From: a virus
UHGV virus genome: UHGV-0038722
Length of the DNA stretch: 29,986 nucleotides
Strand: one strand, 5' to 3'
Below the pieces are notes generated by a model. The model saw nothing but the letters and a program-made list of their open reading frames with translations. It was not told where the DNA came from and made no database searches. Every line of letters begins with the position of its first letter. The first letter of the stretch is position 1. Shown piece by piece: positions 1,034 to 7,953 of the stretch. The position numbers were made by a program, and so were the translations under genes.

Positions 1034-1056
1034 AAAAAAACCCAGCCGAAGCTGGG
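1034..1056 (-). terminator. Rho-independent terminator downstream of ant
   Basis: Perfect hairpin cccagc-cgaa-gctggg (1041-1056) followed on the minus strand by a 7-nt T run (1034-1040). Confidence 0.75.
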
Positions 1057-1075: not shown

Positions 1076-1999
1076 TCAGTAGTTATGAACTGAAGGAGGT
1101 AATTCTTTATTCTTAAGTCTCATCCATGCGGAAAGATTCGTTGGTCCGTCTGGCTCATTGATATCAACATCTCGTGTGTGATTGATTAAAACGTCTCTTG
1201 CCATATCGATAATACGGGAGAACTCATAACCGCAGTCATGACATCTGCCGGAATAGTTCGATTGAATTTGTTTTAGTGCCGGATACAGTTCGCGGAATAA
1301 TGCCTGTGAGCGGTTGGCATAATCCCATAACCATACAAGGCTGTTTGCTTCTTTTGCAGAAAGCTCGTTTGCTTTCTTCTCTTGTTTGCCGATTAACTCG
1401 CCTTCAAGCGGAACGCGAGCTGCAAGTGACAGAGCTTCGGTAAACTGCTCATCGCTGATTTCTTTGTATGAACACCCAAAACGAGATTTCAGTGACGACC
1501 ACATGGTGATCATCGCCTTAGCCTGCTTTTCTTTTGGCAGAGACTGACCGCGACTCATGACGAGTTGTTTAATGGCTTCCTGCTGTTCAGTGGTGATTTT
1601 ACCCGGCAACGCCTTTTTAGCTTTGCGTGGGTTAACTACATGGCCTTTAGTCCAGTAGTCGTAGAGCACATCGTCACACTCTTCCTGATACTGGATTACC
1701 TTGTCGCGGATTTCAGGGCGGACTTTGTTAGGACTGATGCTGTTCAACCAAGCTGCCAATTTTCGTAAAGCCATACAAATCATGGCTTGCACCCCACCGG
1801 CAGAAGGTATGGTGATTTCCACCATACCCTTCGAGAAGCGTTGAGAAATCTTCTTATGTTGAGATTTCCAGTCTAGCCCCATTCCCTCAACGATAGGTTT
1901 CATTGGGGTATACGGTTCGCCGTTGTGATTGACAACATAAAGCTCTGCGCCGTGGAATGGTACATTGATAGTAGATACTGCTGTTGCTATACTTTTCAT
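1076..1999 (-). CDS. ant: Antirepressor Ant-like protein (AntA-type N-terminal domain, Cys-containing C-terminal region)
   Basis: 307-aa ORF; N-terminal region resembles AntA/Ant antirepressor domain; located after arc as in P22 immI; AGGAA SD upstream. Confidence 0.7.
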   Translation of the reverse strand: MKSIATAVSTINVPFHGAELYVVNHNGEPYTPMKPIVEGMGLDWKSQHKKISQRFSKGMVEITIPSAGGVQAMICMALRKLAAWLNSISPNKVRPEIRDKVIQYQEECDDVLYDYWTKGHVVNPRKAKKALPGKITTEQQEAIKQLVMSRGQSLPKEKQAKAMITMWSSLKSRFGCSYKEISDEQFTEALSLAARVPLEGELIGKQEKKANELSAKEANSLVWLWDYANRSQALFRELYPALKQIQSNYSGRCHDCGYEFSRIIDMARDVLINHTRDVDINEPDGPTNLSAWMRLKNKELPPSVHNY

Positions 2000-2066
2000 G
2001 TCGTTAATTCCTATGCGTGGTTTTACGATACCGAAGCCCTGACTGTTACCGCAGTTGGGGCTTCAA
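1997..2066 (+). ncRNA. Putative sar-like antisense RNA covering the ant start codon and RBS
   Basis: Plus-strand sigma70 promoter (-35 TTGATA 1965-1970, 17-bp spacer, -10 TATACT 1988-1993) firing antisense into ant start; hairpin 2033-2064 followed by U-rich stretch; architecture matches P22 sar (inference). Confidence 0.35.
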
Positions 2067-2266
2067 CTTTCTGCTCTATCAGTTATATCTTTCCCTTCAT
2101 ATACTTCACCTATATTGCTAATGCTGGCAGAACATCCAAGATGCTTGTATCTTATGATGTCCAACACGCAGTCACTACACAGCATCCGACCTGTTTCTTT
2201 AGAGTAAATGTATGTTTGATCAGCGTCTGATTCGCTAATGCCGCAGAAACAACATTCTTTACTCAT
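2063..2266 (-). CDS. Small cysteine-rich (zinc-ribbon-like) protein between arc and ant, unknown function
   Basis: 67-aa ORF with CCFCG...CSDC motifs; ATGA start/stop overlap with arc indicating translational coupling. Confidence 0.55.
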   Translation of the reverse strand: MSKECCFCGISESDADQTYIYSKETGRMLCSDCVLDIIRYKHLGCSASISNIGEVYEGKDITDRAES

Positions 2267-2403
2267 ACCGTTATCCCCTCTCTCTTCAGGCTGTCCATCA
2301 CCCGTTTAATTACTTCTGCACTAAATGAGCGACACTCTTCCTTTGCTTTCTCTTCAAGGATTTTTTCTAACTTCTCTGGCATACGCAGTGTTTTTACCTT
2401 CAT
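2263..2403 (-). CDS. arc: Arc-like ribbon-helix-helix repressor
   Basis: 46-aa ORF (below ORF-track size cutoff; hand-translated MKVKTLRMPEKLEKILEEKAKEECRSFSAEVIKRVMDSLKREGITV); resembles P22 Arc (RSVNSEIYQRVMESFKKEG); GGAGG SD; divergent from mnt. Confidence 0.75.
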   Translation of the reverse strand: MKVKTLRMPEKLEKILEEKAKEECRSFSAEVIKRVMDSLKREGITV

Positions 2404-2415
2404 TGCATCCTCCGT

Positions 2416-2480
2416 TGTATGTGGTACGCATACATAGTATTTAGGTACGCATTGATAGTCAATAGATACCTACATATCCT
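2416..2480. promoter_or_regulatory. Divergent overlapping promoters Pant (minus) and Pmnt (plus) with two operator-like inverted repeats
   Basis: Pant: -35 TTGACT (2457-2462) and -10 TACTAT (2434-2439) on minus strand, 17-bp spacer; Pmnt: -35 TTGATA (2452-2457), -10 TATCCT (2475-2480); inverted repeats tgtatg-N7-cataca (2416-2434) and attga-TAG-tcaat (2451-2463). Confidence 0.6.
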
Positions 2481-2508: not shown

Positions 2509-2760
2509 ATGTCTGATCGTAAGTACAAAAACCCTCAAGTGAATCTGAGGCTTCCTGTAGAGATAAAGGAGCGTCTTATTGAACTGGCTGAGGCTAATTC
2601 TCGTTCATTAAATGCTGAGATGGTCGCGGCACTTGAAGCGTGGACCGAAAAAAATAAACACATTCAAGCACTAGACCTTGCAACTATAGCATCACGATTG
2701 ATAGATCTTGAACGCGATGTTGAGACGCTAAAGACCATGTATGGTAAGGATGAAAAATGA
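2509..2760 (+). CDS. mnt: Mnt-like ribbon-helix-helix repressor
   Basis: RHH N-terminus (PQVNLRLPVEIKERLIELAEANSRSLNAEMVAAL) plus C-terminal helical region; divergent from arc as in P22 immI; ORF track starts at 2503, AGGA SD favours ATG 2509. Confidence 0.75.
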   Translation: MSDRKYKNPQVNLRLPVEIKERLIELAEANSRSLNAEMVAALEAWTEKNKHIQALDLATIASRLIDLERDVETLKTMYGKDEK

Positions 2761-3122
2761 GTGACAATTCAGGATACTCAGACGATCAACTGCGAGAGGC
2801 TGAATATCGCAAGGCGCTATCGTCTATAACTACAAAGGTTCTCGACTCTTTCTTGAGAGCTAAAGGTGTTCCAGACGAATGCCCAATGTGCGGGCAGTCT
2901 GAAATGGTTGTCCCTCAAGTTCAATTTGTAAATCAGGATAATGGAAAAGACATCATGGGTAGGCATGCCCATTATGGTGAATATATAAAAAACGAAGATG
3001 AATCATTCAACCCAATAAATTACTCTTATCATGTAATTTGCAAGCATTGCGGATACATTATGCAGTACAACACAGGTGTTGTGTTAAGCTGGTATCTAAG
3101 GGAGAAAAACAGCAATGTCTAA
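2757..3122 (+). CDS. Hypothetical zinc-ribbon protein, first gene of mnt-coupled accessory cassette
   Basis: 121-aa ORF; ATGA overlap with mnt stop; CPMCG and CKHCG motifs; no family recognised. Confidence 0.6.
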   Translation: MSDNSGYSDDQLREAEYRKALSSITTKVLDSFLRAKGVPDECPMCGQSEMVVPQVQFVNQDNGKDIMGRHAHYGEYIKNEDESFNPINYSYHVICKHCGYIMQYNTGVVLSWYLREKNSNV

Positions 3123-3450
3123 GTTGAAGTTGGCTTACGATGCTGACAATCCTTTTCCGAATAGCGAATTTGCCCCCATCGGAATTGAAGACTCAGAAGA
3201 GCCAGCACATGGAGGTGGCAATGGAGGAGGATCAGATATGAACAGTAGAATGACCCGCATTGAAACGATTGCCGCCAACCAAGAAAAGCTAATATCAGAA
3301 ACTAGAAAAGAGTTGATTGGCATCCGTGGCGACATGCACGGAATGGAGCGTCGCCTAGCAGATAAGATGGACGAGAATCAGAAGTGGCTTATCGCCCTCA
3401 TGATATCTGCAATCCTTGCTCCGCTGTTTATTGCCTTGGTTACCAAATAG
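3115..3450 (+). CDS. Hypothetical tail-anchored membrane protein (C-terminal TM helix)
   Basis: 111-aa ORF overlapping upstream gene by 8 nt; GGGAG SD; Gly-rich linker GGGNGGG; hydrophobic C-terminus WLIALMISAILAPLFIALV. Confidence 0.6.
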   Translation: MSKLKLAYDADNPFPNSEFAPIGIEDSEEPAHGGGNGGGSDMNSRMTRIETIAANQEKLISETRKELIGIRGDMHGMERRLADKMDENQKWLIALMISAILAPLFIALVTK

Positions 3451-3471
3451 CTACTAACTAAGGAGATTTGT

Positions 3472-3795
3472 GTGTATACAACAGTTATCGTGATAGCTAT
3501 CGCACTCATTGTGGTTCAGTACCAACTGGCATCTTTAAAACAAAAGATATCTGACCTCAAGACTGAGAACGAAGCACTTAAAAACTCAATAAAAGATGAG
3601 AAGAACAAACTATCATTCACTATATCTGATATTGAGCAATCCATTGAAATTATTGAGAATAATATTAACAGACTAAAAAAAGAAGATATTCATGAAATCA
3701 ATGACAATATCAAGGATTTGAAATCTTGGCTTAGGAATGTAGGACAAATCGCCACATCAACACGAGATAAGCTCAATCCATCCATGGATGATTAA
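3472..3795 (+). CDS. Hypothetical membrane-anchored coiled-coil protein (N-terminal TM helix)
   Basis: 107-aa ORF, GTG start with AGGAG SD 6 nt upstream; N-terminal TM YTTVIVIAIALIVV then K/E/N-rich heptad-like sequence; strongly AT-rich. Confidence 0.55.
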   Translation: MYTTVIVIAIALIVVQYQLASLKQKISDLKTENEALKNSIKDEKNKLSFTISDIEQSIEIIENNINRLKKEDIHEINDNIKDLKSWLRNVGQIATSTRDKLNPSMDD

Positions 3796-5922
3796 TTACT
3801 CCTGTGCTATTCCGCTTAGCGACGCTACAATGCCAGCCCTCGCTAAGCGATTGAACTCTTCGTTTCCAACTGCATCACGTATTGCTTTTACGGCGGCTTT
3901 ATTTGCCATAAATCTGCGTTCCGCCGCCGCTAATGCTTCTTTACTTCCGCCAGCTCTTACTGCTTTCGTGGCTTCCTGAACTGCTTTCTCTATCGCATAT
4001 CGACCGCTACGCGTGGTGGCAATTTTAGATACAGCACCTTTTAACCCGGCGCCAACTAAAGCACCCGCGGCAGCGCCTGCAATACCCCCTCCAGCGCCAC
4101 CAACAATGGCACCTGATGTTGAGTTGGCAATTGCATTTAACACTGTTGATGTGACGTTGGATAAACCAGCATCCAGATCGCGTAGTACATTGGCAGTTCT
4201 CCCTGTTCTTTCAATATACTGCTGAGGTTTCACTGCCGCTCTTGCAAGAGTGCCATATGCATCAGCAATTCTTCCGAGATCTGAGGAATATCTGCTAATG
4301 GCTTTTACATTTTGTGGGGTAAGTATCCCTGCGATATGGTTAATTCCTGCTGCATCAGCTTTGCCACCACGTACACCATGCGAGATAGCATCTTGCAACA
4401 TTGATGATATAGCAGGAACACGCTCTGATTCTGGCAGCGCGCGGATCATAGAATGGAACCCAGCAGGACCATTAAGACCTTTAGCTGACGATGATTGAAG
4501 GGATTTTACTCCATTCGTAATCAGTGCATCTGTTGCCAAATCACGCCCGAAAACAGACTCTGCACTCTCTTGTGCTGATAACCTCGCTTTAGACAGATCA
4601 TTAGCTTTCTGCCAGTCATCAAGAAATCCGCCGTTTTCCGCCATTGTGCGCATATCATCAGTAATTGCCCGGCGTATTTCCCCTGCTCTCCTTGCCGCAT
4701 TTGCCTCTCCGCTACGCTTATATTTTTGCTCCGCATCAGCAAATTTCGCTCTCCATGCTTTCATGCCATCAAATGTTACTCCACCTTGATTGTTTGCCTG
4801 AACAAACTGTTTCATTTCAGGAGTAAGTGGTATGCCAGCAGATCGCTCTGCCTGAATAACGGCATTACCATTTAGCATTCTTGCTTTTTGATTTGGCATT
4901 GTTGACCGCACGTCATCCCATGCCGCGCGCTCGGCATCCTTCATCTGATCAAGATTTTGAAGAATCCTTTGTTTTATAGCCGCACTTTTTTCTGATGCCG
5001 TTCCAGATGCGGCCCCAAATTCATCAAGGTTTCGACTTAACTTTGATGATATTTCGTTAAATGCTGCCTGATGGGCGTCCTGAACAATTCCTGGTGTTGA
5101 TGCCAATGCGCCTTCAGCTTGTGCAATTCCACGACTTCCAGATCGCATTCCTGGTGTTAATGCGTTTATATCAATTCCAGCAGACTCAGCCGCTTTTGCT
5201 ACATCTTCGGACACATTAGCGGCCTGACTGGCAATTGACTGACGCCCAGCACCTGACTTTGCCATCCTGGAAACATCATTAGCAGAATTCAGTGCTGCAC
5301 CACCAAGAGCCTGTGAAACCCTTGGCGCAATAACGCGCCCGACACCTGAAAGAACGCCTTGAGCACCAATATTGATACCACCGTTAATGGCAGCATTTTG
5401 TGCAAAATCGCCCTCCTGATTTGCAGCATCAGCAAGAGAACCTGCAATCATGTTTCCTGCGGAACCGATATCTCCAGCGAGCTTTGCTGGCGCTCCAGCA
5501 GCTTTTGCCGCTGTGCCAATTGGCAGGAGATACCCACCAATTGTTTCACCGGCTTGCGCGTAAGGGTCTGTCGGTCGATCGACTGGACGATAGACATCAT
5601 CCAATACTTTTGGCCCACCAAGCCCCTGACTGATTGCATTAATCAGACTTGCGCCACCCTGCAATACGTCAAATGGTATGTTTACCAGACCACGACCAGC
5701 CTGTTCTGCAATTTGCCCTGCACTTTGACCACCAGTGAGCCAATCGCCAGCTTGTTGCATCAATGATGGTTCTTCACGCGCTGGTTCATTATTGGCCTGA
5801 TTAACTGTTTGTTGCTGAACAGCCTGACCAGCAAAATACTCATCAATGGCGGTGCCAATATCTTCCGTGCTCGTACCATCAGGGAAGGTAAATGTCTTTC
5901 CGTTTGCAGTTACTTTCATCAT
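3796..5922 (-). CDS. Ejection (injection) protein, P22 gp16-like
   Basis: 708-aa ORF, Gly/Ala-rich; last of gp7-gp20-gp16 triad by position and N-terminal similarity to P22 gp16. Confidence 0.75.
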
Positions 5923-7250
5923 TCCACCGTAAATTGAATGCCTGATTTTGAGGTATATGATCCGGATTGACTCTGCTGCTGTTGGGTATTTGTCGGTTGT
6001 TGGTTATTGCTCTGTTGTTGCGCAGGCTGCTGAATATCTTCATACAGCTTGGCTTTTCTGGATTGCAATTGCTTAGTTAGTCCGCTGGGGAGAGAATCTC
6101 CATAAGTTGAAAGATAATCATCCATTTGCTGGTTAAACTTTTCGCCTTCAGTATTTGCCATCAGTTTTGAGGTGTTGATTAAGTCTTGGACTTGCTCATT
6201 ATTCAGCATCTTGCCGTTAGATAATTGGCTAACATAGTTACCAAGTGTGCCAAATATTCCATCAGTGCGTTTTACCTGCACTTGCTCACCTTCGCGTACC
6301 ACAGATTGCGGATCCAGCGATTTCATATAGTTGAAAATCATTCCCAACTGCGCGGCTGGAGTGTTGCGCTTCCCAAGGGCTTGTAGGTTGTCAGAAGCAC
6401 TGCGCATTGCAGAATAATTCTTTGAGAACCCATTAATATCACTATTCAGATCTCGAACAAGTTTTGGGTCAATCTTTCCGCTTTCCTGTTGTTTCATCCC
6501 TAATTCCTGCAACTTCAGGGCTACGTTATCATTATGCATTTGTGCCCGCTGAGCCCTGTCTAGTTGAGCGTTTTGGATATTTGCCCATCCTCTCGCGTTC
6601 TCCATGTCAGCCTGACGGATGCTTTCATCCAATCGCCCTTTCTCAAGTTGGCGACCAACCATCTTATCCTGATAATCCAGCATTTTATCCGGACCAACAG
6701 CCCCTAGCGTCATAGTAGTCAGCATGTGTGATAGCTGCTCTGGATTCTGAATACCTGTCTGAATCATCCAGTCAGCATTCGCCCCCACGCGATTTAACCT
6801 GTCCTTGTTGTCAGTAATGAATTTACTGTAGGCTTCCGGTCCCTGAGAAAGAGCGACGTTAGCCCTCATGGCTAAATCGCCCATATCGTTGCGTTGCTGC
6901 TCATTAAGACCGGAAAACGCCTGTTGTGCCTGCGCAACAAACGCTGGATTTTCCTTGGCAAACTTAAATAGTCCCGATGGATCACCAGAAGCCCATGCAT
7001 CAGCATGAACCTTATTGAACGCATTAATCGCTTTCTGTTGCTGTTCCTGCTTATAAATATCAGCAACTCCAGCCAGACCACGTAACGCGGTCAGACCAAC
7101 GTTATTTGCACCTGAGCGAGCCAGTTCATTGTTTTCGCGGATCAGACCAAGCGTTGCGTTAATGTCGCTTGCCTTTGGCGCATTCTCATTTTGCGTACCG
7201 ATGCCAGCCAGAAAACCACCAGAATTAATACCCTGTTGCCACGTAGCCAT
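5919..7250 (-). CDS. Ejection protein, P22 gp20-like
   Basis: 443-aa ORF between gp7-like and gp16-like genes; Q-rich C-terminus; overlaps gp16 start by 4 nt. Confidence 0.75.
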
Positions 7251-7260
7251 TGATTAACCC

Positions 7261-7953
7261 TTAAAACAGTGAACCAAGCAGACCAAGACCAGCACCAATA
7301 CCAGCACCCCACGGAGTTGATAGCTCGAGAGCACTGGCTATGCCACCACCCAAAAGCGCACCGGATGCAGCACCACTAACCCCCTGCTGCAATGCTGACG
7401 GTCGGTTGGCGTTTGCCGCAGCCAGCGCCGCGCTTTGCTGTGAAATCTGACTCATGTTGTTGGCATATGTTTGCCCGGCGTTTGTCTGCCCCTGAAGAGC
7501 GCCAAGACCGATATTTGCCAGGTTGTTGTAATTGTTCATTTGTCCAGATAGCCATTGCTGACCAAGCGTTGGTGCGATTGTTGCTAACTGATTACTGGTT
7601 GCGGTGGAACCCAATCCACCTGTTGCTTCCGCTGCCGCCAGACTCTGATAGCGAGCCTGACCTGCAAGGTCTTTATACTGCTGAGAGTTGTAATACTGGT
7701 TAAGTGCCTGACCTTGCCCATCCAGAGACGATAAGTTCTCGAGGCTGCCGACATACTTCTCAGCCAGAGGAGTAAACGGCTTCAGGTTATTCATGATGGT
7801 GTTGAACTGCTGATTTTGCAGGTCTGCGGCATACTTCTGAGCTTCTGCGGCATACTTTGCACTTTTATCAGAACTGCCACCTTTCCCGCCTTTTTCAGGG
7901 CAATAAGGTTCCTCGCCGCGCAGTTTTCTGCCCAGCTTAAATGCATATAACAT
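7261..7953 (-). CDS. Ejection protein, P22 gp7-like
   Basis: 230-aa ORF; N-terminus MLYAFKLGRKLRGEEPYCPEKGGKGGSS and length match P22 gp7 from memory. Confidence 0.8.
   Translation of the reverse strand: MLYAFKLGRKLRGEEPYCPEKGGKGGSSDKSAKYAAEAQKYAADLQNQQFNTIMNNLKPFTPLAEKYVGSLENLSSLDGQGQALNQYYNSQQYKDLAGQARYQSLAAAEATGGLGSTATSNQLATIAPTLGQQWLSGQMNNYNNLANIGLGALQGQTNAGQTYANNMSQISQQSAALAAANANRPSALQQGVSGAASGALLGGGIASALELSTPWGAGIGAGLGLLGSLF

Follow-up and report, generated by a model that had tools for sequence, protein, structure and literature searches.

A putative promoter-operator region in the CUS-3-type immI module of a P22-like Escherichia coli phage

Introduction

[quoted passage not shown] In the P22-type phage epsilon34, the annotated Pant/arcO segment has the form AATATA-17-TGTCAA, and the Mnt operator, Omnt (GGTCCACCGTGGACC), lies just past the Pant start. 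According to our reading of this same region, a Pmnt of the form TTGAGA-17-TATCAT is located inside the Pant spacer, the promoters overlap nearly in full, Oarc occupies the spacer that the two promoters share, and the two transcription starts are about 37 bp apart. In the case of phage CUS-3, Villafane et al. reported in 2008 that arc is apparently missing, and that ant must therefore be controlled in a manner unlike that of P22 (PMC2629481). The CUS-3 record (CP000711) carries no annotated arc in its "ant moron" (6505-7262), and the corresponding stretch (6505-6986) is called "bsq2; boundary sequence". A similar, non-identical mnt-arc-ant locus was described in the 2026 transcriptome of the related phage Kapi1, where no mnt expression was detectable (PMC12922286). 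More generally, the sites recognised by ribbon-helix-helix (RHH) proteins include arrays of 4-bp boxes, either direct or inverted (PMC3413123).

Here we analyze one such locus in UHGV virus genome UHGV-0038722, the whole 29,986-nt stretch of which is referred to below as the window. The window belongs to a CUS-3-like, P22-like phage, with CUS-3 covering 77% of its entire length at 96.4% identity. We focus on positions 2416-2480, located between an arc-like and a mnt-like gene, where the initial annotation had placed two operator-like inverted repeats within overlapping promoters. In the literature that we searched, we found no description of these operators, and neither binding nor start-site data for this module.

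Results

Judged by its two Arc-family RHH proteins, an Ant protein with both P22_AR domains, a sar RNA, and its genomic position, the locus is a genuine homologue (an "ant moron") of the P22 immI region. The module is located between the ejection-protein gene (3796-5922), a 708-aa ORF matching the CUS-3 DNA transfer protein (a gene-16-type ejection protein), and the N-terminus of the tailspike, the head-binding domain of which occupies the minus strand between the window edge and about position 700. The arc-like gene (2263-2403, minus strand) opens the ant operon and encodes a 46-aa protein beginning MKVKTLRMPE, with a PF03869 match (E = 2.9e-9) and matches to Arc in the PDB (E about 5e-4) and to pArc. 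The mnt-like gene (2509-2760, plus strand), transcribed divergently from it, encodes an 83-aa protein in which an RHH domain (PF03869, E = 3.1e-10) is followed by a C-terminal extension. Downstream of arc, with one extra ORF interposed, is the gene for the antirepressor Ant (1076-1999, minus strand; 307 aa), where both the P22_AR_N (E = 2.4e-45) and the P22_AR_C (E = 1.4e-27) domains were identified. A full-length sar antisense RNA (RF00262; 2001-2068, plus strand), scoring 85.7 bits against a gathering score of 43 (E = 1.2e-17), spans the ribosome-binding region of ant and the end of the interposed ORF. A Psar-like promoter (1965-1993, plus strand; TTGATA-17-TATACT, 10 of 12 consensus positions, with a TG before the -10) is found inside the first ant codons, in the same position as the Psar annotated in epsilon34.

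Several other features of the module are worth recording. The interposed ORF (2063-2266, minus strand; 67 aa) overlaps the arc stop codon at 2263-2266, has its 3' end beneath sar, and carries two CxxC pairs (CxxC...CxxC) in a zinc-ribbon-like arrangement; no Pfam match and no P22 counterpart were found for it. About 20 nt past the ant stop codon, a terminator-like hairpin (CCCAGC-CGAA-GCTGGG; 1034-1056, minus strand) is followed by seven T residues; between this hairpin and the tailspike start near 700 there are about 330 bp of AT-rich DNA. On the other side, three small ORFs of 121, 111 and 107 aa follow mnt on the plus strand (2757-3795), and Pfam gave nothing for them beyond weak matches under the curated cut-offs; the 121-aa ORF has a CxxC...CxxC motif, and the 107-aa ORF looks like a coiled coil and corresponds to CUS-3 hkcB in position and length. 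This part of the module differs among relatives.

Over the stretch from arc to mnt, identity is 95.3% with CUS-3 and 77% with Salmonella phage SEN22. The carriers of most of this stretch number at least 112 among 5426 complete E. coli genomes, and they include K1 and extraintestinal strains. CUS-3 itself also has the 46-aa Arc-family ORF, which the NCBI pipeline annotates in E. coli genomes. A search of a plasmid collection returned one short match in Pantoea, which was uninformative, and Kapi1 was absent among the matches to the module of the window.

Between the two repressor genes, a promoter scan independently recovered both of the promoters proposed in the initial annotation, with hexamers at the same coordinates and 9 of 12 consensus positions matched by each. 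The Pant-like promoter (2434-2462, minus strand) consists of a -35 TTGACT (2462-2457), a 17-bp spacer, and a -10 TACTAT (2439-2434), with a predicted start near 2427, and it precedes arc, the 67-aa ORF and ant. The Pmnt-like promoter (2452-2480, plus strand) consists of a -35 TTGATA (2452-2457), again a 17-bp spacer, and a -10 TATCCT (2475-2480), with a predicted start near 2487. Promoter-like matches of this kind are not significant on their own, as three were found in 2 kb against 5.2 in shuffled sequence. The earlier description of the two predicted promoters as "face-to-face", however, does not hold: they are divergent and placed back-to-back, their overlap is confined to the -35 hexamers, which have a single base in common (2457), and their predicted starts are about 60 bp apart.

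A possible RNA structure was also noticed on the Pmnt side. On the plus strand, a stem at 2473-2505 (ACATATCCTG...CAGGATGTG), predicted to fold at -13.1 kcal/mol (z = -2.94), would pair the Pmnt -10 (TATCCT) with the mnt Shine-Dalgarno sequence (AGGA, 2498-2501). A transcript initiated at Pmnt (about 2487) would be without the left arm of this stem, and a read-through RNA of the plus strand would have its mnt ribosome site sequestered. Single-sequence folds of several relatives give -10-to-ribosome-binding-site stems of different sequence. Such an arrangement resembles the way in which IS10 guards itself against outside transcription.

Both inverted repeats proposed in the initial annotation, outer arms included, are found where they had been placed, one at the predicted Pant start and the other over both -35 elements. 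The first, IR1 (2416-2434), is a 19-bp dyad centred on 2425, TGTATG (2416-2421)-N7-CATACA (2429-2434), which takes in the final base of the Pant -10 as well as the start predicted for Pant (about 2427). In a single sequence IR1 is not unusual, as 30% of dinucleotide shuffles of the 105-bp intergenic DNA contained a perfect inverted repeat of 6 bp with a loop no longer than 10 nt. A terminator scan flags IR1, and we considered whether it might act as a terminator or as a hairpin in the arc leader RNA; such a role was rejected, given a folding z of 0.07 and a predicted start that falls inside the repeat. The second repeat, IR2 (2443-2471), has the structure AGGTA-N3-ATTGA-TAG-TCAAT-N3-TACCT and is centred on A2457, with its inner part at 2451-2463 and its outer arms at 2443-2447 (AGGTA) and 2467-2471 (TACCT). 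It covers both -35 hexamers and reaches into both spacers. A repeat finder extended it to 18-nt arms (2438-2455 and 2459-2476) that are 78% complementary, and an extended dyad of this quality (14 of 18 arm matches) was found in 0.4% of the same shuffles (P = 0.004). The TTGA-N3-TCAA core of IR2, however, is an automatic by-product of two back-to-back -35 boxes, so that only the outer symmetric bases count as independent evidence of an operator.

A feature overlooked in the initial annotation is a tandem 21-nt direct repeat on the plus strand, with one copy at 2423-2443 (GGTACGCATACATAGTATTTA) and the other at 2444-2464 (GGTACGCATTGATAGTCAATA), 76% identical to each other. Both copies start with GGTACGCAT, so that this sequence is part of IR1 and recurs two helical turns (21 bp) further on, as a direct repeat, in the left arm of IR2. 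A search of the window for extra copies of the repeats yielded only one partial IR2-like sequence, at Psar. At 1958-1978 (plus strand), over the Psar -35 and ant codons 8-14, GGTACATTGATAGTAGATAC resembles the IR2 sequence GGTACGCATTGATAGTCAATAGATAC, with deletions of 2 and 4 nt. Five of the relatives have an IR2-like sequence in the same place, and the P22-type epsilon34 does not. This may be a third, half-site operator controlling sar, or it may be a coincidence arising from the TTGATA -35 box combined with the codons for T-I-N-V-P.

To place this block in a comparative frame, loci were gathered through the Mnt-like protein and through an Arc-like alignment, and 21 representative lineages were aligned. 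These lineages come from Escherichia, Salmonella SEN22, Arsenophonus, Ca. Phlomobacter, Xenorhabdus, Photorhabdus, Chimaeribacter, and IMG/VR contigs, and their Mnt-like proteins go down to 49% identity. Across the 21 lineages, mean pairwise identity is 0.84 over 2416-2471, with 0.85 for IR1 (0.89 for its inner part) and 0.90 for the IR2 core (2446-2468). Elsewhere it is 0.43 in the arc leader, 0.35 in the mnt leader, and 0.51 at third codon positions of mnt. Strong purifying selection on the promoter-operator block is supported by this alignment, and, going by the same comparison, the observation is beyond chance once the relatives are considered.

Within the block, the conservation of the promoters follows their predicted elements in the lineages aligned: both spacers stay 17 bp long and both -10 hexamers retain a TA...T pattern. 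The Pant -35 is nearly invariant, and its -10 is found only as TACTAT, TAATAT or CACTAT. The Pmnt -10 has T2475 and T2480 unchanged throughout and A2476 almost so, and its positions 3-5 vary, giving TATCCT, TATTCT, TAATCT, TAACAT, TACCAT and TACTAT, which is how a genuine -10 would be expected to vary. Conservation also extends to the repeats. In IR1, G2417, A2419, T2425, A2426, G2428 and C2433-A2436 do not change in any lineage, and the invariant core can be written as GTAYGCATAC (2424-2433) plus GTA (2417-2419); the symmetric bases conserved are G2417-T2418-A2419, pairing with T2431-A2432-C2433. In IR2, the symmetric pairs T2446/A2468 and A2447/T2467, which are located outside the hexamers, are invariant, and A2451 pairs with T2463, a position that is a C in a few lineages. 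The direct repeat is likewise reflected in a GTAyG conserved at both 2424-2428 and 2445-2449. RNA polymerase places little constraint on positions in the spacer and flanking the start site, and it is because of the conserved symmetric bases in the spacers and start region, outside the hexamers, that we take operators to exist here.

The block and the flanking genes also tend to stay together. In all the loci gathered, wherever an Arc-like gene occurs, a Mnt-like gene and both repeats occur too, and no natural swap separating one repressor from one repeat was seen among the loci retrieved through the Mnt-like protein, through the Arc-like alignment, or through the IR2 core used as a DNA pattern. 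Loci without the full module are a Xenorhabdus locus (L013), the tandem second mnt genes discussed below, and a few unrelated chance matches to the 17-mer of that pattern. In L013, which is found at a contig end, mnt and most of IR2 are kept (the left outer arm is gone), and both arc and IR1 are lost. A different kind of change is seen in three loci whose Arc-like proteins begin MKKVKTIRMP (type D), where the left arm of IR1 is replaced (GTAATACRTATGCATACA).

As for the proteins, the Mnt-like protein has Mnt itself as its best PDB match (1mnt, E = 3e-5), and it aligns over its full length with epsilon34 Mnt (25 of 77 residues identical), including the C-terminal TLKxxYxK. A single-sequence AlphaFold model of the monomer, of low confidence (pLDDT 71), contains a helix at residues 57-78 and no strand; such a separate C-terminal helix would be compatible with Mnt-like oligomerisation. 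The predicted DNA-contacting ribbon of this protein, PQVNLRLP, is nearer to that of P22 Arc (PQFNLRWP; Q, N, R) than to that of P22 Mnt (PHFNFRMP), and PQVNLR is invariant in every Mnt-like protein that adjoins the block. In P22 Arc, we take Q9, N11 and R13 to be the base-contacting residues. The residues of our Arc-like protein that align with them are V3, T5 and R7, and the protein has hardly any N-terminal arm. P, S and R occupy these positions in other lineages that carry the same repeats. In the type-D Arc proteins, the predicted contacts are V, T and R as in type A, and types B and C differ and yet keep a standard IR1.

Neither P22 Omnt (GGTCCACNGTGGACC) nor Oarc had a match anywhere in the window, with up to 3 mismatches allowed. 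The proposal that these repressors differ in specificity from those of P22 is well supported by this result and by recognition strands that are not those of P22. Further evidence comes from EC.P3-type modules, found in EC.P3, in S.Kent 1-2-1, and in five E. coli matches, which are mosaic with respect to positions 2350-2719 of the window. What these modules have in common with the window, at a DNA identity of about 86%, is the C-terminal half of Arc and roughly the last 12 residues of Mnt. The N-termini of both proteins are unrelated, as is the entire intergenic region, which has a Pant-like promoter and a palindrome of its own. Because both N-termini and the intergenic DNA are replaced together, the DNA-binding parts would appear to travel with the intergenic DNA, as a cassette of about 2350-2719. 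With a cassette that travels as a unit, the assignment of this module to a specificity class different from that of P22 is well supported by the sequences compared.

Additional mnt genes were seen in some loci. In CUS-3, a gene for a P22-type Mnt (MARDDPHFNFRMP) directly follows the window-type mnt (3289-3537 of the extracted locus), and no P22 Omnt was found in the 6.5-kb CUS-3 stretch examined. In another locus (L025, approximately 1240-1500), a third type of Mnt with its own repeats is followed by a window-type mnt without an operator of its own. Such tandem arrangements suggest trans-acting cross-immunity, in which the extra genes of foreign specificity could act against the antirepressor modules of other phages.

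Discussion

Our analysis suggests that positions 2416-2480 are the transcriptional control DNA of a CUS-3-type immI module, that is, of the secondary immunity of a P22-like E. coli phage, a reading to which we assign a probability of about 70%. Within it, the block is very probably a promoter-operator region for both of the flanking repressors. The transcription starts, the binding of repressors to the block, and the pairing of each protein with one repeat are all inferred from sequence. According to the model that we propose, a strong leftward Pant-like promoter would drive arc, the 67-aa ORF and ant, and a weaker rightward Pmnt-like promoter would drive mnt, with IR1 and IR2 serving as operators for the two phage-encoded RHH repressors. 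Due to its location at the Pant -10/+1 junction, an occupied IR1 would prevent open-complex formation at Pant only, and IR2, which spans the two -35 hexamers, would when occupied occlude Pant and Pmnt alike. In the lysogen, the Mnt-like protein, probably a tetramer, might sit on IR1 and keep ant silent and Pmnt free. Early in infection, the Arc-like protein made from Pant might bind IR2 and shut off both promoters, and sar RNA would add antisense control of ant translation.

Which protein uses which repeat is the less secure part of this model. The assignment of the Mnt-like protein to IR1 and of the Arc-like protein to IR2 is favoured on the basis of position alone, as in P22, and we propose it tentatively, as the likeliest of the alternatives, stopping short of calling it probable. 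The Arc-type ribbon of the Mnt-like protein and the GGTACGCAT common to IR1 and the left arm of IR2 would both leave room for another pairing. Several observations would argue against the model as a whole: the Arc-like ribbons vary (V/T/R versus P/S/R) while both repeats are unchanged, the IR1 left arm is replaced in type-D loci with the predicted contacts of both proteins unchanged, IR1 is not significant in one sequence, the core of IR2 arises automatically, the Mnt-like ribbon is closer to P22 Arc than to P22 Mnt, and L013 has mnt and most of IR2 but neither arc nor IR1. The opposite assignment, with the Mnt-like protein on IR2, repressing ant and autoregulating mnt, and the Arc-like protein on IR1, autoregulating Pant only, would fit the near identity of the Mnt-like ribbon to that of P22 Arc, as well as the spacing of IR2, which, when read as ATTG-N5-CAAT, has the box spacing of P22 Oarc (TAGA-N5-TCTA, as we read it). 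It would also be in line with the retention of mnt and IR2 in L013 in the absence of arc and IR1, and with a left half of IR1 that changes only in type-D loci. L013, however, appears to have been truncated recently, at the end of a contig, type-D Arc proteins have the contacts of type A, and it is types B and C, with a standard IR1, that differ. Furthermore, with simple autorepression at a -35 that both promoters use, a strong Pant would be harder to silence tightly than it is in the P22 arrangement. We consider this opposite assignment unlikely.

It is also conceivable that the direct repeats, rather than the palindromes, are the functional units, bound cooperatively by one of the RHH paralogs or by both, in the manner of the omega, ParG or MetJ arrays, and that the two proteins perhaps compete for overlapping sites. 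The tandem 21-nt repeat, the GTAyG conserved in both of its copies, and the subsites of the GGTAYGCAT type at 2423-2431 and 2444-2452, with a weaker inverted copy at 2471-2463 and a 21-bp phasing, would all be expected in this case, as would an invariant GTAYGCATAC next to a replaceable IR1 left arm. A centre-to-centre distance of 21 bp, however, is double that at which pairs of RHH dimers are usually spaced, the third copy matches poorly (6 of 10 positions), and the symmetric outer bases of both palindromes are conserved; a site shared by paralogs with different ribbons would also be unexpected. We regard such an array as quite unlikely. Because the Mnt-like protein carries an Arc-type Q/N/R ribbon, we also considered a broader scenario, in which ribbon types were shuffled between the paralogs, and the 55-bp block consists of phased GGTAYGCAT/TTGA boxes that the two proteins share or compete for, or is bound with the two operators exchanged; this we find rather unlikely. 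Lastly, the block might contain no operators at all, but only promoters, or a recombination "boundary sequence" as bsq2 of CUS-3 was labeled, with the palindromes as by-products. The automatic TTGA-N3-TCAA and the lack of significance of IR1 upon shuffling are in agreement with this possibility, and mosaic breakpoints do fall at or near the block (about 2446 in L013, about 2428 in type D, and just inside arc in two other loci). Nonetheless, conservation reaches well beyond the four hexamers, is symmetric, and affects spacer and start positions that promoters leave free, the block has a gene for a DNA-binding repressor on either side and is parted from these genes in hardly any locus, and the homologous P22 region has operators in the corresponding places (PMC2724298, PMC2629481). 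We consider the absence of operators highly improbable.

The P22-like model is our working proposal, and the module is best seen as an uncharacterised but ordinary relative of the textbook immI system, with no new kind of mechanism. It nonetheless provides a natural second specificity class of the Arc/Mnt system. Its candidate operators are well defined and its natural variants numerous, so that the relation of ribbon residues to DNA boxes can be probed with it. Our results also correct the published claim that phages of the CUS-3 type lack arc and control their antirepressor differently. Antirepressors can induce co-resident prophages, so that a switch of this kind matters for prophage induction and cross-talk, and the module is common among E. 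coli genomes.

Comparison with other systems helps to define what is shared and what is particular to this locus. The block is similar to the box arrays of CopG, ParG, omega and MetJ in having boxes of 4-5 bp (GTAYG/CATAC and TTGA/TCAA), both direct and inverted, over about 55 bp of promoter DNA; this is a resemblance in sequence only, with nothing here pointing to more than two dimers per site. The exchange seen in EC.P3-type modules, in which the N-terminus of Arc, the DNA between the genes and the DNA-binding domain of Mnt are replaced as one piece, recalls the lambdoid immunity cassettes, where the cI N-terminus, OR and cro are exchanged together. Lambdoid cassettes, however, encode helix-turn-helix repressors and control lytic promoters, whereas the module described here encodes RHH proteins and controls an antirepressor. 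The "ant moron" of CUS-3 is essentially the same module, with the same repeats except for one base (T2467C), and differs in having a second, P22-type mnt after the first, of which the window has none.

With the immI region of P22 and epsilon34, the locus shares the gene set and its order, the place in the late operon, two Arc-family RHH repressors, a recognisable sar, and a putative strong Pant pointing away from a putative weaker Pmnt, with one dyad at the Pant start and another where both promoters could be blocked. In spite of these commonalities, there are clear differences. The Arc-like protein is 46 aa long, without an N-terminal arm and with V/T/R instead of Q/N/R, the Mnt-like protein has a ribbon of the Arc type, and the 67-aa ORF is additional. 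The predicted promoters overlap in their -35 hexamers only, and some 60 bp separate their predicted starts. IR2 has its centre at the -35 junction, and IR1 directly adjoins the Pant -10, which brings it about 6 bp nearer to that hexamer than an Omnt of the P22 type. The initial annotation had proposed that the immI logic of P22 is reproduced here with other operator sequences; the homology of the locus and the difference in operators stand, and the predicted geometry of the promoters is not that of P22 as we read it from epsilon34. As far as the sequence allows us to judge, the regulatory logic could be the same as in P22, with one site acting on Pant alone and one on both promoters, in a layout that is no copy of it.
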